NCBI GenBank assembly: GCA_963849105.1
Contig: CAWKGD010000001.1
Location: forward strand, 122,719-186,718
Source of the DNA: an uncultured Acidimicrobiaceae bacterium
GTDB taxonomy: Bacteria; Actinomycetota; Acidimicrobiia; Acidimicrobiales; Bog-793
Reading direction: 5' to 3'
DNA length: 64,000 nt
Positions 19,985 to 26,482 of the stretch are shown one piece after another. Every line of letters begins with the position of its first letter. Within the stretch, counting starts at the first letter, position 1. The notes below the pieces were generated by a model. The model did not search any database. It saw only the letters and a list, made by a program, of their open reading frames with translations, and was not told the origin of the DNA. The position numbers were made by a program, and so were the translations under genes.

Positions 19985-20904
19985 CTCTTCGCGACCTCGA
20001 TTGCCACCTCGCCGGCGAGACGAGCGTTCGCCCGCACGAGGGCGCGATTCGTCCGCACGCTCTCGCCCTTTGTGTACTCGGCGAAGCACGCGAGCAGGAA
20101 GGGCGTGACGTCCTTGCCCTGCACGCCTGCGGCCGCCGCGCGGGCTTCCGCGTCGGCGAGCGCCGCGGAGTGAACTTCGGCGGAGAGCGCGTCCGCCTCG
20201 GCAACGGGATTGGCGAGGACCATCGCCGCCGGGGAGAGCGTCCGGTGGGCGCGGAACGCCGTGGCCACATCTCCGGGGGAGTCGAGGCGCCAGCTGAGGC
20301 GGTGCGGCGTCGCCCGGACGTAGAAGCCCGGGAAGGCGTCGGTGCGATATCCAGCGACGGGAACCGAGAGCGTCTCGAGGCGTTCGAGGGTCGCCGAGAC
20401 GTCGAGGATCGATTTCACGCCGGAGCAGACGACGAGCACCGACGTGTCGTGTAGCGCGTAGAGATCGGCGGATTCGTCGTAGGTGGCGCTCGCGCCCCGG
20501 TGGACGCCGCCGAGTCCTCCGGTCGCCATCACGACGACGCCCGCTCGCGCGGCGAGCGAGATCGTCGAGGCGACCGTCGTTGCGCCGTTGATGCCCTGGG
20601 CGATCGCCAACCCGAGATCGCGCGAGCTCAGCTTCGCGACCTTTGATGGTGCGGCCGCCAATTGCGCGACCTCGTCGCGGGAGAGTCCGACGACAGGGAC
20701 ACCGCCCAGGACGCCGATCGTCGCCGGCACAGCCCCGGTCGATGCGACGATCTCTTCGAGTTCCTGGGCGACCTCGAGGTTCTCCGGGCGCGGAAGACCA
20801 TGCACGATCAGTGTCGTTTCCAGCGCAACGATTCCGCGGCCTTCGGCGAGCGCCGCCTGCACGGCATCCCCGACGCGGATCGAGCTTCTGCCCCGCTCTG
20901 ACAT
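19981..20904 (-). CDS. psuG: Pseudouridine-5'-phosphate glycosidase
   Basis: VALETTLIVHG, KLSSRD, ATGGLGGVHRG, DESADL, GVKSILD and GKDVTPFLL motifs. Confidence 0.93.
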   Translation of the reverse strand: MSERGRSSIRVGDAVQAALAEGRGIVALETTLIVHGLPRPENLEVAQELEEIVASTGAVPATIGVLGGVPVVGLSRDEVAQLAAAPSKVAKLSSRDLGLAIAQGINGATTVASTISLAARAGVVVMATGGLGGVHRGASATYDESADLYALHDTSVLVVCSGVKSILDVSATLERLETLSVPVAGYRTDAFPGFYVRATPHRLSWRLDSPGDVATAFRAHRTLSPAAMVLANPVAEADALSAEVHSAALADAEARAAAAGVQGKDVTPFLLACFAEYTKGESVRTNRALVRANARLAGEVAIEVAKR

Positions 20905-20942
20905 GGGCGTCGAAGTGTACTGTTCGCACGTTCCGGGGAGCT

Positions 20943-21368
20943 TTGGAGGTCGTCATCGAGATCGACTGGGGCCGTCTGCGCGCCGAAGCCGACCGGATGG
21001 TCGAACGTGCGTACGCGCCGTACTCGCGCTTTCGCGTCGGTGCCGCGGGGCAGGTGTCGGACGGACGCATCTTCAGCGGCTGCAACGTCGAAAATGCGTC
21101 GTACGGGTTGACGCTGTGTGCCGAGTGCGGGCTCGTCTCCGAGTTCGTCGCGAACTCGGGCAGCGCCCTCGTCGCTCTCAGCGTCAAGAGCAGCTACGGC
21201 GACTTCCTCACGCCGTGCGGGAGATGTCGCCAGCTCCTCGTCGAACATGGCACGGTCGGACTCGTCATCGACCAAGGGCCGGCGCGTCCGCCGAGACTCT
21301 TGAGTGAACTGCTTCCCGACCCGTTCACGAGTTCCGATATCCCGAACCCGGGGAATGGACCGACCTAG
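20943..21368 (+). CDS. cdd: Cytidine deaminase (start uncertain)
   Basis: AYAPYS, GCNVENASY, CAE and PCGRCRQ motifs. Confidence 0.92.
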   Translation: MEVVIEIDWGRLRAEADRMVERAYAPYSRFRVGAAGQVSDGRIFSGCNVENASYGLTLCAECGLVSEFVANSGSALVALSVKSSYGDFLTPCGRCRQLLVEHGTVGLVIDQGPARPPRLLSELLPDPFTSSDIPNPGNGPT

Positions 21369-22656
21369 CCCGGGCGAGTTCAGCTTCGACGTCGTCGATC
21401 TCATCCGACAGAAGCGGGACGGCTCGACGCTTTCTGACGACGCGATCGACTGGCTGATCGACGCCTACGGCAAAGGCTCGATCGCCGACGAGCAGATGTC
21501 GGCGCTGCTGATGGCGGTCTTCTTCCAAGGAATGACAAAAGAAGAGCTCGCGCAGTGGACCTCGGCGATGATCGCCTCGGGTGAGCGGATCGATCTCTCC
21601 TCGGTCTCTCGACCGACCGTCGACAAGCATTCGACGGGCGGTGTCGGCGACAAGGTCTCGCTGATCCTCGTCCCGCTCGTCGCGGCGTGCGGCGCCGCGG
21701 TGCCCCAGCTGTCGGGTCGCGGGCTCGGCCACACCGGCGGGACGCTCGACAAGCTCGAGGCGATTCCCGGGTTCCGTTCGGACCTCACGACCGCCGAGCT
21801 CGTGGCGCAGCTCGAGACGGTCGGTTGCGCGATCTGTGCCGCGGGCACGGGTCTCGTACCTGCCGACCGCAAGATGTATGCGCTGAGAGACGTGACAGGC
21901 ACCGTCGAGTCGATCCCGCTGATCTCGGCGTCGATCATGTCGAAAAAGATCGCCGAGGGTACGCATTCCCTCGTCCTCGACGTGAAGGTCGGCACCGGCG
22001 CGTTCATGGCCGACACCGAGCAGGCGACCGCGCTTGCCCAGGCGATGGTCGGGCTCGGTGAAGCCCACGGCCTCAATGTCACCGCACTGCTCACGGCGAT
22101 GGACACGCCGCTCGGCAACGCCGTCGGCAACGCGCTCGAGGTCGAAGAGTCGGTCGCGGTGCTCTCGGGCGGCGGGCCGAACGACCTCGTCGAGGTGACC
22201 TTGGCGCTCGCAAAGGAGATGTTGGCGCTCGCCGGCATCGAGGGCACCGAACCGGCGCAGGTCCTGCGCGACGGCTTCGCGCTCGACCGGTATCGGGCGA
22301 TGATCGCCGCACAGGGCGGCGACCCCGAGGCGCCGCTTCCCGTCGCGAAGCACAAGAAAGACGTCACCGCAGACCGTTCCGGCTACCTCGCGCGGCTCGA
22401 CGCACGCGGTGTCGGCGTCGCGTCGTGGCGGCTCGGCGCCGGTCGGCAGCGCAAAGAAGACCCCGTCTCTCAGACGGCGGGCGTGATCTGTCTGGCGAAG
22501 CCCGGAGCTGCCGTCGAAGCCGGCGAGTCGCTCCTCGAGCTGCACGCCGACAGCGAGGACCGCTTTGGCCGGGCGCTCGCGGCGCTCGACGGCGCGATCG
22601 AAATAACCGACGAGCCACCCGATCCGTCGCCGATTGTGCTCGGGCGGATCGGCTGA
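21355..22656 (+). CDS. deoA: Thymidine/pyrimidine-nucleoside phosphorylase
   Basis: DKHSTGGVGDK, SGRGLGHTGGTLDKLE and SIMSKK motifs. Confidence 0.94.
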   Translation: MDRPSPGEFSFDVVDLIRQKRDGSTLSDDAIDWLIDAYGKGSIADEQMSALLMAVFFQGMTKEELAQWTSAMIASGERIDLSSVSRPTVDKHSTGGVGDKVSLILVPLVAACGAAVPQLSGRGLGHTGGTLDKLEAIPGFRSDLTTAELVAQLETVGCAICAAGTGLVPADRKMYALRDVTGTVESIPLISASIMSKKIAEGTHSLVLDVKVGTGAFMADTEQATALAQAMVGLGEAHGLNVTALLTAMDTPLGNAVGNALEVEESVAVLSGGGPNDLVEVTLALAKEMLALAGIEGTEPAQVLRDGFALDRYRAMIAAQGGDPEAPLPVAKHKKDVTADRSGYLARLDARGVGVASWRLGAGRQRKEDPVSQTAGVICLAKPGAAVEAGESLLELHADSEDRFGRALAALDGAIEITDEPPDPSPIVLGRIG

Positions 22657-22698
22657 CACGGCTTCGACGACTCGGCACCGTGCCGATACCGTTGGGTC

Positions 22699-23814
22699 GT
22701 GCCCTCGAGGAGCCCTTCGTTCCCCGAAATCGTCGCGGCGCCGAAAGTGCTGCTGCACGACCATCTCGACGGCGGCCTGCGCCCGGAGACGATCGTCGAG
22801 CTCGCGTCGGAATTCGGCTACCGCGGCCTGCCAACGACCGACCCCGCCGAGCTCGGTCGGTACTTCGTTTCCGAGACCCCTCGCCGGGATCTCGTCAGAT
22901 ACCTCGAGAGCTTCACCCACACCGTCGGCGTGATGCAGCACAAAGAGGCACTCGAGCGCGTCGCCTTCGAGTGCGTTGAAGACCTCTCCCTCGACGGCGT
23001 CGTCTACGCCGAGGTGCGTTTCGCCCCCGAACTCCACACCGAGGCGGGGCTCGAGCTCGACGAGGTGGTGGAGGCGGTGCTCTCCGGTTTCAACGTCGGA
23101 ATGGCCGCGGCCGCCGCCGCCGGGAGGCCGATCGTCGTCAGGGCGCTGCTCTCGGCGATGCGCACCGCGGCCCGCTCGCTCGAGATCGCCGAGCTCGCCG
23201 TGCACTACCGCGACGTCGGGGTGTGCGGGTTCGACGTCGCCGGCGCGGAGGCCGGCTACCCGCCGACTCGGCACCTCGACGCGTTCCAGTTCGTCCAGCG
23301 CGAGAACTTCCACGCCACCCTGCACGCCGGCGAGGCGTTCGGGCTGCCGTCGATCTGGGAGGCGCTGCAGTACTGCAACGCCGAGCGCCTCGGCCACGGG
23401 GTCCGCATCGTCGACGACATCACGGTGGAAGCCGATGGTGTGACCCGGCTCGGGCGACTGGCGAGCTACGTGCGGGACCGTCGCGTCCCACTCGAGCTCT
23501 GCCCGACGTCGAACGTCCACACCGGGGTCGTCGCCTCGATCGCCGAGCACCCGATCGGCCTGCTCTTCAAGCTGCGCTTCCGCGTCACGGTGAACACCGA
23601 CAACCGGCTGATGAGCGGGGTGACGCTCTCCTCAGAACTAGCAAAGGTCGCCGAGACCTTCGAGTGGGGCTGGTCGGATTTGTCGTGGCTGACGATCAAC
23701 GCCATCAAGAGCGCCTTTTACCCTTTCGACGAGCGACTGAGATTGATCGACCAGAAGATCAAGCCCGGATTCGCCGCCCTCGCCGACGCGCCGCCGAGAA
23801 GCGTCGAGATCTAG
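22699..23814 (+). CDS. add: Adenosine deaminase
   Basis: HDHLDG, HAGE, RLGHG, CPTSN and NTDN motifs. Confidence 0.94.
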
Positions 23815-23986
23815 GAACCGATCCGTCAGCGTCCCGGCTCGCCGCATCGATGAGTGTCCACCGCCCGGCCCCAAAGCGTCGCAACTGATGACGGCGCTAT
23901 CTACGTTCGAGCTCGCCGACGGGCGGCGCGCCGTGGTGCCTGCTTGAGACTTCTGACAGATGCGACGGTTGATTCGTAGCGTTTAG

Positions 23987-24160
23987 AGGTCCGAACGGGG
24001 TTTGCTCACGAAGTGCCTGCCCCGGATTCGTCCGGTTGGCTTTTGAACGAAGAGCGTCCCGTTCGGATCTTGCCGCGGCGTGGCTCGAAAGAGGAACACG
24101 CACGAACAATCTCAAGCAGGAGTGCCCTCCGCGGTTTCCCATCAGCTGAGACCACGGAGG
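23987..24160 (+). ncRNA. Candidate IS110 bridge-RNA-like RNA in the left non-coding end
   Basis: 14-bp closing stem 23987-24000 / 24057-24070 enclosing hairpins CCGGA-TTCG-TCCGG and GCTTTT/AAGAGC; second domain CCGCGG..GCGTG..CTC-GAAA-GAG..CACGC..CCGCGG. Confidence 0.55.
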
Positions 24161-24168
24161 AAGTGTCG

Positions 24169-25199
24169 ATGACGGTGATCATCGGAGTAGATCCGCACAA
24201 GGCAAGCCACACGGCCGTTGCCGTGAGCAGCAGGGAAGAAGAGCTGCCCGCACACAGGTCCGCGCCGGCGGCAGCCAGCTCGAGCATCTCGTCACTTGGG
24301 CCGAACCATTCCGAGAGCGCACGTGGGCGATCGAGTCGGCAGGAGGTCTCGGCTACCTCTTGTCCCAGCAGCTCGTCGCCGCCGGCGAGGAAGTGTTCGA
24401 CGTGCCGGCGACGCTCGCCTCCAGGGTGCGCGTCCTCGCCACCGGTCGGTCGAACAAGAACGACCCGAACGACGCGCTCTCGATCGCCGTCGCCGCGCTG
24501 CGCTCGAAAGATCTGCGCCGGGTCGAACCGGTCGGTCACGCTGAGGTGCTGCGCCTCCTCGCCAAGCGCAACAACGACATCGGAGATCAAAGGACCCGAG
24601 TCGTCTGCCGGCTTCACGCGATGCTCGCCGAGCTCTCCGGTGGTGGCATTGACAAGGAGATCTATGCCTCCGACGTCGACCGCTTCCTTTTGGAACACAA
24701 GGCCGAGACCCCGGTCGAACAGGTCCGCTTCGATCTCGTCGCAGAGCTCTTAGACGACATCCGTCGCCTCGATCAGCAGTTAAAGGTCTCGCACAAAAGG
24801 ATCCGAGACGCCGTTAGAGCGTCTGGAACCTCGGTGACGGAGATCTATGGGATCGGACCGATCATCGCCGCGATGCTGATCGGCTACTCGGGCGACATCA
24901 CGCGCTTTGCCAACCGCGACCACTACGCCTCTTACAACGGAACCTCCCCGGTCGAGTTCTCCTCTGGGGGTCGGGTCGTCCACCGCGTCTCACAACGCGG
25001 CAACCGCAACTTGAATCATGCGCTCCATATGGCGGCGGTCTGTCAGCTCCGCCAAGTCCACTCCGAAGGCCGCGCTTATTTCGACCGGCGCGTCGCAGAA
25101 GGAAAGACGGGGAGGGAAGCGCTCCGGGCGTTGAAGCGCCACGTGAGCAACGCCGCCTATCGAAAGCTCGTCACCGACGCGAAGCGCTCGAAGAAATAG
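24169..25199 (+). pseudogene. IS110 transposase/recombinase with a -1 frameshift near 24245-24257
   Basis: GGAGG RBS; IGVDPHK in one frame, then WAIES, KNDPND, GIGPI, VEFSSG and GNRNLNHAL in the -1 frame. Confidence 0.88.
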
Positions 25200-25200
25200 T

Positions 25201-25360
25201 GGGTCCGGGAGGACAATAGGGAGCGACTCATAGCCAGCGCGGTCGGCTTTACATCCCTGAACACCGGCTCTTTGGCGAAGTCACTCCCGAACCCAATGGA
25301 AGCCTACGCAGCCGCACCACTCGGTGGCGGCTCGGAGTCGCGCGTCCGGAACCGAGTCAT
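25201..25360 (+). ncRNA. Structured right non-coding end of the IS110 element
   Basis: Long-range stem GGGTCCGGGAG..CTCCCGAACCC (25201 to about 25294), then AGCCGC..GCGGCT and CTCGG..CCGAG hairpins. Confidence 0.4.
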
Positions 25361-25639
25361 AACGAGCTCTTGACACAAAGAGGATTCGTTCTGTGCGCAG
25401 ATCCGCTCCAAAGTCGGCCCGGAAGCAGCGCACCGATTTGTGGCGAGAGGGGCCGGCGGAATTCTTCCGGACCACCCGCAGCCCTCGACCCTGACCCGAA
25501 GCGAACAAGCGGTCCGCCCCACTGGCCGTGTGGTGTGTTGCTCCGCTTCGCGCTCTCGGTGTCACCGACCCCGTCGCCATGCCAACAGCTCGCGGGTGAC
25601 GCTGTGGGTGGATCGAGGACTACGCTGGTGGCCGCCGGT

Positions 25640-26482
25640 TCAGGCGATCGGGCGCAGCCTGTCGAGCAGCTCGGTTTGAGAGTGGGCGCCGATTTTGCGG
25701 AAGATCGCCTTTAGGTGATTGCGGACGGTGTGCTCGCTCAAATAGAGCGTGCGCGCGATCGACGCGACGCGTCGGCCGTCGAGAAGCAGCGCAAGCACGT
25801 CGCGCTCACGTCGAGTGAGCGAATCTGGCCAAACGAACGGTTCGATGTCCACCGACGAATCTGAGAACCGCTCGCGCCGAGCCAACTGCTCGCCGTTTGG
25901 TGCCGTGCGTTGCATCGATGCCTCGTCATTGGAGCGGTCTGGTTCCGGGGTCAACAGGCAGACCGCGAAGCGTCCCCGGCCGGCACTCGGAAAGGCGCTG
26001 ATTGTCATGCGAACCCGCACGCGACCGCGGTCCTGGGTGAGGAGCTCGAAGCGCGTCGAGGCTGCGCCGGACCCCTCGACCGACAGCAACGACGCCATCG
26101 CTTCCAGCATGCGCAAGTACTTCAGTCGTTGGTCGCGTGGGACATAAGGAGGCGGGTCCGAGGTGTCGGCCGGCTGGCAGGCATCCGCACCGACGAGATC
26201 GTCGAGGGCTGGGTTCGAATAGACGCGGTGCCCGGCGCCATTGACGACGAGGACGCCGTCGCTGAGGTCGTCGATGATCGTCTTTAGTGACTGGTCGAAC
26301 CATGCCTGGGTTCTGCGCTGGCGCAGGCCCAAATCCGCAACCGCCCGCGCCGAGGTTTCGTCTGTTCGGTCCGCCGAACTCTCTGCTGTTCGCTGCAACG
26401 CTGACCTCTCACTCCTTCGTGACGAGTGAGGCACCCCCGTGCCGTTTGCGAAGCCCCTCTTCGTTACGTCTTGTCGGTCCAC
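25640..26482 (-). CDS. LuxR-family regulator with an N-terminal PAS-like domain (start uncertain)
   Basis: LTRRERDVL..IARTLYLSEHTVRNHLKAIFRK HTH; PAS-like IIDDLSDGVLVVN..YSNPA. Confidence 0.85.
   Translation of the reverse strand: MDRQDVTKRGFANGTGVPHSSRRSERSALQRTAESSADRTDETSARAVADLGLRQRRTQAWFDQSLKTIIDDLSDGVLVVNGAGHRVYSNPALDDLVGADACQPADTSDPPPYVPRDQRLKYLRMLEAMASLLSVEGSGAASTRFELLTQDRGRVRVRMTISAFPSAGRGRFAVCLLTPEPDRSNDEASMQRTAPNGEQLARRERFSDSSVDIEPFVWPDSLTRRERDVLALLLDGRRVASIARTLYLSEHTVRNHLKAIFRKIGAHSQTELLDRLRPIA

Follow-up and report, generated by a model that had tools for sequence, protein, structure and literature searches.

A predicted IS110 bridge RNA with covarying guides in an uncultured Acidimicrobiaceae bacterium and the probable insertion of its element into dif-like sites

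We examined a 64,000-nt stretch of DNA (the window) from an uncultured Acidimicrobiaceae bacterium and identified an IS110 element at positions 23941..25387 on the plus strand, made up of a left end (23941-24168), the gene of its recombinase and then the right end (25200-25387). The two halves of the target site flank the element. The left half (23925..23940, +) has an 11-bp arm at 23925-35 followed by GTGCC at 23936-40, while the right half (25388..25399, +) has a G, the last base of a 6-bp centre, followed by an 11-bp arm in which the left-arm profile is mirrored. The left and right core bases are C23940 and C25387, respectively. The element sits between a run of nucleoside-salvage genes ending in adenosine deaminase (20808-23814, +) and a PAS-LuxR regulator gene (25640-26482, -). 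In a syntenic relative (G403), the adenosine deaminase and PAS-LuxR genes are adjacent with no IS; no empty allele of the window's own locus was found among the relatives, the G403 intergenic region differing throughout.

The recombinase gene (24169..25199, +) encodes an IS110 DEDD/serine recombinase with Pfam domains PF01548 and PF02371, and it scored above the cut-off of NF033542 (155 bits vs 140). Its best PDB matches were 8wt6 and 9t56. The window copy has a frameshift near 24245. A second element copy, 99% identical and in different flanks, was found on contig C5 of the same genome (G000), and its recombinase has an open 344-aa frame with the motifs holding D, E, D, D and S. The frameshifted window copy would rely on this intact sister copy. 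The earlier note on this DNA had suggested a recombination assay with a frameshift-repaired transposase; no repair is needed, since the genome carries the intact C5 copy. Six further distant IS110-type recombinase matches (25-37% identity) were seen on G000 contigs C3, C4, C5, C6 and C7.

Homologous loci were gathered from genome contigs (80), other genomes (29), further genome regions (9) and metagenomes (80), with loci L102 and L107 (genomes G001 and G120) excluded from the set. We aligned 161 left ends. Both ends and sufficient flank were available for 115 loci, 3 of which (L076, L095 and L130) failed the register filter, leaving 112. A search for interrupted ORFs at the insertion sites yielded nothing usable. 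In the distant member L097 (38% identity), the left flank apparently lies within a repeated transposase-like gene, which is intact on four G000 contigs and which we take to be IS30-like from its encoded motif.

The element ends are common to the homologues, and the sequence shared among copies runs from GTGCC (23936) through GAGGATTC (25387). In empty sites, GTGCC is present between both flanks. The flanks of L025 align with an empty site in L038 over 153 nt at 90% identity, gapless at the junction and with GTGCC in place, and for the C5 copy two empty counterparts of its target were found on G000 contig C3, one matching at 29/30 and the other at 91% over 91 nt, with GTGCC in both. Since the empty sites contain GTGCC, the element spans 23941-25387 and the core is a single C, read as CC in the target and TC in the donor. 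The core C at -1 on both sides, which served as the inclusion filter, was found in 112 of the 115 loci, with position -2 differing between target and donor, and a G at +1 was found in 109/112 loci.

The fold of the left-end RNA was tested on 138 distinct homologous rows using RNAalifold and pair counts; no Rfam family was found to match it. The consensus runs in the order stem, left guide, hairpin, right guide and stem, followed by a second domain. The target-binding domain (23987..24070, +) comprises a 14-bp stem, a GCTC/GAGC stem, an internal loop, a GCC/GGC stem and an apical hairpin that varies. Already recognised in the earlier note, the 14-bp stem (23987-24000/24057-24070, two of its pairs being G-U) is paired in 87% of cells with compensatory changes. 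The UUCG hairpin described there (24022-24035) is also present in the window, closed by an A-U pair, and its UUCG loop is rare (6/138 rows). On the other hand, a second hairpin proposed at 24039-24055 did not hold up, being 68% paired overall with its innermost pair in 18/138 rows. GAGC, its supposed 3′ part, pairs with GCTC at 24004-07 instead (outer pair in 138/138 rows, 15 double changes), and for that reason the first domain has no branch; the branched architecture once suggested gives way to an internal loop with an apical hairpin.

The donor-binding domain (24073..24134, +) is closed by CCGCGG/CCGCGG (24073-78/24129-34), with 97% of cells paired and 48 double changes at one pair, and by GGC/GCC, paired in 100% and also with double changes. 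Thus, of the GAAA-capped CCGCGG domain reported before, the closing stem stands, whereas the GAAA hairpin is unsupported by double changes: its pairing is possible in 137-138 of 138 rows with zero double changes, and it overlaps the left donor guide. Double changes are carried by the 14-bp stem, GCTC/GAGC, GCC/GGC, CCGCGG/CCGCGG and GGC/GCC. Taken singly, the RNA sequence of the window copy folds only modestly above chance (z = -2.09; 5/200 shuffles fold equally well).

At a circle junction, the two ends of the element bring together a predicted -35 hexamer TTGACA (25370..25375, +) and a predicted -10 hexamer GAGACT (23946..23951, +). TTGAC is present in 69/70 distinct junctions, and in 65/70 it is followed at a 17-nt spacing by nAnnnT, the A2 and T6 of the -10, the spacing being off by one base in the other 5. 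As the circle junction rebuilds TTGACA-17-GAGACT, the RNA start is likely near 23957. A sigma-70 consensus scan of the linear element found no promoter. The predicted RNA has a 5′ stem-loop (23958..23984, +), the 3′ arm of which, TAGCGT (23977-82), is possibly also an internal -10. Over 117 distinct segments, this stem-loop had a median z of -2.3 against mononucleotide shuffles, with 76% below -1.5; RNAalifold gave no consensus on the aligned, gapped stem-loop, and single folds were used instead. The bridge RNA is likely about 178 nt long (about 23957-24135), with a predicted order of 5′ stem-loop, target loop and donor loop, as in IS621. The earlier note had the RNA start just after TAGCGT and lie about 180 nt from the ATG. 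The distance is right (the ATG is at 24169), while the start is at best a second, internal one, as the conserved junction promoter lies upstream and TAGCGT forms the 3′ arm of the stem-loop.

We then looked at the covariation of loop bases with the target of each copy, a check for which the earlier note had called. For each position, Watson-Crick matches over the 112 loci were compared with the mean of 2000 permutations (expected values in brackets below), with a floor p of 0.0005. Covariation was found, the floor being reached at 14 positions over four guides; the p-values of the donor and seed positions overstate it because kin share those states, and the insertion sites are independent events.

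The left target guide (24009..24017, +) reads target -9 to -1, with its seed GTGCC at 24013-17. It matched at -3 in 106/111 loci (95.0), at -4 in 108 (83.1), at -5 in 107 (88.1), at -7 in 82 (66.4) and at -8 in 62 (33.9), all at p 0.0005, and weakly at -9 (p 0.02). In the right target guide (24044..24051, +), bases 24044-48 correspond to target +5 to +1 and are followed by core/handshake bases at 24049-51. Its matches at +2 (68/112; 41.0), +3 (94; 55.4), +4 (65; 43.6) and +5 (72; 51.7) all reached p 0.0005. Across the 112 loci, no covariation with the RNA was found for target -6 and -10 to -15, nor for +6 to +11, which are mostly U-G; thus, recognition of the arms is left unexplained by the guides. 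As to strands, the left target guide covaries with the bottom strand of the target and the right one with the top strand.

The left donor guide AAAGAGGA (24088..24095, +) corresponds to donor -11 to -4, at 25377-25384, and matched at -10 in 111/112 loci (82.8) and at -4 in 105 (87.1), both at p 0.0005. Donor -5 to -9 match in 110-112 loci and -11 in 105, which is too invariant to test, and base 24096 fits donor -2 or -3 in only about half of the loci. The right donor guide CAAGCA (24113..24121, +) corresponds to donor +6 to +1, at 23946-23941, followed by core/handshake bases at 24119-21, and it matched at +2 in 106 loci (91.7), at +3 in 111/112 (62.3) and at +5 in 106 (95.1), again at p 0.0005. 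Two short matches quoted in the earlier note are not guides. The donor match GGATTCGT is the right junction of the inserted element, its RNA copy lying within the variable apical hairpin, and the target match CGGTTG (23966-71) is internal to the element, its RNA copy being changed in the sister element.

The handshake bases showed the same pattern at 24050, 24120 and 24121 as described for IS621 (PMC11208158). Base 24050 pairs with donor -2 in 112/112 loci and with target -2 in 2/112, base 24120 makes a Watson-Crick pair with target -2 in 111/112 and a wobble with the donor, and base 24121 pairs with donor -3 in 107.

An additional segment, GCAC (24100..24103, +), is complementary to the target seed and to the left target guide of the RNA itself. 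It is the reverse complement of the seed in 76/80 distinct GTGCC-type, 4/4 GCGCC, 2/2 GGGCC and 4/6 CTGCC RNAs, and it is absent in distant members and in 5 CCGCC, 3 CCGTC and 2 TCCCC RNAs. Matched changes of segment and seed occurred in at least 5 separate places when mapped on a FastTree built from 142 proteins. This covariation fits RNA-RNA and RNA-DNA pairing alike: as a remote handshake, GCAC would catch the top strand of the incoming target (-2 to -5); alternatively, it would mask the seed of the RNA to which it belongs. We regard the remote handshake as a tentative proposal, at somewhat less than even odds.

Several other readings of the left end have to be set against that of a bridge RNA transcribed from the circle junction. 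If the structure had arisen by chance or served only as a leader that controls translation, guiding nothing, a single-sequence z of only -2.1 would come as no surprise, but this is extremely improbable given that bases in the loops follow the independent insertion sites at +2 to +5, -7 and -8, as well as the element ends. Scarcely more credible is that GTGCC belongs to the element, with a blunt crossover lacking a core and a target loop that reads both product junctions. GTGCC is indeed common to both copies and most homologues, as is TCCCC to five G382 copies; however, the empty sites containing GTGCC contradict this model, and the 17-nt promoter spacing holds solely with the boundary at 23941. 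An early model of ours, in which the element started from 23936 with no core and the second handshake was on the bottom strand, was dropped because of the empty sites with GTGCC. A more serious contender, although we would still bet against it, is that transcription of the functional RNA begins at 23987-89, at an internal promoter whose -10 is TAGCGT, and leaves out the 5′ stem-loop. The integrated element would then be the source of the RNA, which could support excision; in IS621, excision requires transcription of the linear element (PMC13626964). TAGCGT (109/138 rows) or TAGCAT (16/138) is found in 125/138 rows, more conserved than its paired 5′ arm, and a similar TAnnnT lies at a similar distance ahead of the right-end antisense stem described below. 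Against this, no conserved -35 is visible upstream in the alignments, the consensus scan was without a promoter, the spacing of the junction promoter is canonical and the stem-loop upstream shows conservation. The junction start and the internal start are not mutually exclusive.

We next turn to the site into which the element inserts. Inverted 11-bp arms around a 6-bp centre are the layout of tyrosine-recombinase sites, and in the 90 distinct GTGCC-type targets a GTGCCG centre is bordered by 11-bp arms that mirror each other (11-6-11), although spacers of 8-12 score alike on the insertion sites alone. Most of the 24 other targets end in CCG. By eye, against the dif consensus, both arms look XerC-like. 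The strongest arm bases (-12 C in 87/90, +6 G in 80 and +8 G in 78) are mostly opposite U in the guides; thus, they are likely set by the site family or a protein. The arms of the window copy are weak, with a profile score of 11.6 vs 28.8 for the sister copy.

A site profile trained on insertion sites only revealed 21 empty look-alikes above score 14 in G000, as against 4 for the reversed control. When hits above score 12 were counted, 12 were found in 6/15 recombinase loci of other genomes (53 kb), the reversed control giving 1; the 9 control loci (29 kb) also gave 1, and the count for G000 was 30 vs 7; the other 9/15 recombinase loci had no profile hit. The recombinase in question is XerC-like and 304 aa long, its gene in G000 lying at C3:590181-591092. 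One empty G000 site lies about 20 nt past the stop of its gene, and relatives were found in 10/250 other genomes of the class. It falls far under the NCBIfam XerC and XerD cut-offs (112 vs 335 and 109 vs 330 bits). From adjacency only, we infer that the recombinase acts on the 11-6-11 sites. Its gene is flanked by two inverted sites in G543 and G607, while in G047 the sites are direct repeats, each separated from the next by one ORF. Five genomes, four of them picked because they carry the recombinase, were scanned with a degenerate site pattern, which matched 15 times in 4 of the 5; a permuted centre matched 5 times and the reversed pattern 3 times. Arrays of CATAA-GTGCCG-TTATG with a single ORF between adjoining sites were seen in G047 (C1:113749-116588), G543 (C1:2186156-2189981) and G607 (C5 and C7; L223, L230, L233, L251, L253 and L255).

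Comparison of 18 G000 sites gave 13 pairs in which one flank of the centre has 16-60 nt in common and the opposite flank no more than 10. Empty sites cluster around accessory genes at G000 C3:171502-215426 and C3:582831-613016, and in several of them a second, CATAACGCGCG-like motif, which may be an accessory site, lies 30-40 nt to the left of the centre. With the arms alone, GTGCCG ranked 64th of 4096 centres in G000, 2/12 arm-only hits were GTGCCG-type and the genome-wide enrichment was modest. In 140 kb of flanks, only 5 further sites were found (control centres 0-2). With the strict pattern, no empty TCCCCG site was found in G382 and no match in viral contigs. The idea of a hairpin as the target found no support.

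That the evolved target is a dif-like recombinase site is, in our judgement, probable. The alternative that we weigh against it accepts the bridge RNA and holds that it aims at nothing more than a generic intergenic repeat or a degenerate motif defined by the guides, the arms being symmetric because the two target guides are alike and not because they are recombinase sites. The two target guides do resemble one another, the arms vary among lineages, and both the modest arm-only enrichment and the weak arms of the window copy would be in line with it. However, the most conserved arm bases mostly face U, which would prefer other bases, and the sites crowd recombinase genes and mark one-sided breaks of homology. 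Moreover, the arms are no more self-complementary than random arm pairs (p 0.66), which speaks against a REP-type hairpin. We therefore consider this alternative improbable, though far from negligible.

At the right end, a second conserved, structured RNA is predicted in antisense (25201..25294, -), folded on 112 rows; it is 94 nt long and lies inside the element in all 112 rows examined. A first, gapped alignment gave almost no consensus with RNAalifold, and a new alignment was used. The asymmetry of G-U vs A-C favours the minus strand. TAnnnT is the actinobacterial -10, and such a motif lies 5-10 nt (mostly 5-7) upstream of the antisense stem in 111/112 tallied rows, the predicted -10 in the window being TAGGCT (25301..25306, -). 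In L038, L039, L040, L041, L042 and L057, the recombinase frame is about 6 codons longer and replaces the 5′ arm of the right-end stem. Matches in Rfam were weak, to Ms_IGR-2 (E 3e-5) and ncrMT1302, both below gathering; thus, these mycobacterial sRNA families may be right ends of related IS110 elements. A role for the right-end RNA as a second guide was also tried and rejected, as its columns gave no register-consistent guide signal and the top signals were scattered, out of register and likely due to kinship.

Taken together, the comparison of homologous loci establishes, at the level of sequence, where the element ends, that its core is a C, that the RNA folds into two loops, that the guides covary and that the target has an 11-6-11 form. 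The earlier note had suggested an RNA that guides a programmable recombinase of a little-studied lineage. The guide covariation supports this, and we hold the RNA to be almost certainly an IS110 bridge RNA, as judged from its sequence. Our main reading, to which we give a probability of roughly 0.8, is that the stretch first noticed is most of an IS110 bridge RNA, its guides covarying with the landing site and the element's own ends, and that it probably steers the element into the 6-bp centre of dif-like tyrosine-recombinase sites.

By analogy with IS621, excision would give a circle, the junction of which would rebuild TTGACA-17-GAGACT and yield the RNA of about 178 nt. Target -9 to +5 would be opened by one recombinase dimer, bound to the target loop, and donor -11 to +6 by a second on the donor loop, and the top strands would be cut 3′ of the C and then exchanged. 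For IS621, top-strand cleavage 3′ of the core has been described, with the handshake bases pairing after exchange (PMC11208158). Here, the pairing of bases 24050-51 and 24120 improves once the strands have been exchanged, and this would favour insertion. The site is split between its centre bases 5 and 6 by the insertion, which would block it until excision.

A bolder version is doubtful in our view: an IS110 lineage centred on Acidimicrobiia that parasitises an integron-like cassette system. In it, the RNA would read the 6-bp crossover centre and be reprogrammed to other NNNCCG centres, GCAC would serve as a fifth guide that pulls the target strand into the donor loop, and the second, antisense loop RNA would bind the recombinase as a decoy or an excision aid.

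This is a fully mapped bridge system from high-GC Actinobacteria; its core is one base long, a natural recombinase is available intact and the guide coordinates are open to testing. The one-base core could relax the CT-core limit of IS621-type tools, and the GCAC segment allows a direct test of how strand exchange becomes directional. Moreover, the insertion sites of the element are a natural census of a cassette-site family in Acidimicrobiia, and they would be a case of Xer-type sites targeted by RNA guidance. Our literature search, mostly at the level of titles and listings, found no paper on this lineage, on a dif-targeting IS110 or on these arrays, and these element ends were not among the matches listed for the Durrant 2024 supplements. 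Bridge RNAs were predicted for 85.7% of ISfinder IS110s (PMC11208160), and variants with other folds have been reported in a study the 86 models of which may include this RNA (10.64898/2026.10.21.760802).

All the features that could be tested here place this system among the IS110-group bridge systems. IS621 and ISCro4 (IS622) share with it a DEDD + Tnp-serine protein, a left-end RNA and a junction promoter (PMC11208160, PMC11208158, PMC13626964, 10.1101/2025.05.14.653916), together with an RNA of about 177 nt in three domains (177 nt in IS621; PMC11208160), four guides, handshake bases and a target read-out of about 14 bp. Those elements have a CT core, whereas here it is a one-base C (target CC, donor TC); the left donor guide here ends 3 nt short of the cut, there is the extra GCAC segment, the 188-nt right end has its own antisense RNA, and the target is dif-like and not REP. 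ISPpu9 (Asr9/Ssr9) is also an IS110 with a second small RNA downstream of the gene, although here that RNA is within the element and antisense to the gene (PMC12288879, PMC8450116). ISPpu10 is an IS110 with target features beyond base pairing, whereas the arms here form no site-specific hairpin (10.64898/2026.03.19.712850).

Three further comparisons concern the target. The IS1111-attC group (ISKpn4, ISPst6) likewise consists of RNA-guided DEDD elements homing to gene-cassette recombination sites, but its RNA is downstream of the gene and its targets are integron attC sites, whereas here the RNA is upstream and the target is a symmetric 11-6-11 site (PMC11187229). The IS1111-group combination of a right-end guide RNA with long sub-terminal inverted repeats was not seen in our element, the guides mapping to the left end. 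The gene modules of Acinetobacter bounded by 11-6-11 pdif/dif sites resemble the arrays described here, which differ in having both arms XerC-like by eye, many direct repeats and a 304-aa recombinase travelling with the sites. Finally, the ISAba32 subgroup of IS1202, the only family for which our search found Xer-site targeting, also targets Xer-type sites bounding gene modules; it belongs to another family and lands 5 bp beside the site with a 5-bp duplication, whereas the element described here lands inside the 6-bp centre and is RNA-guided (10.1101/2022.12.17.520857).
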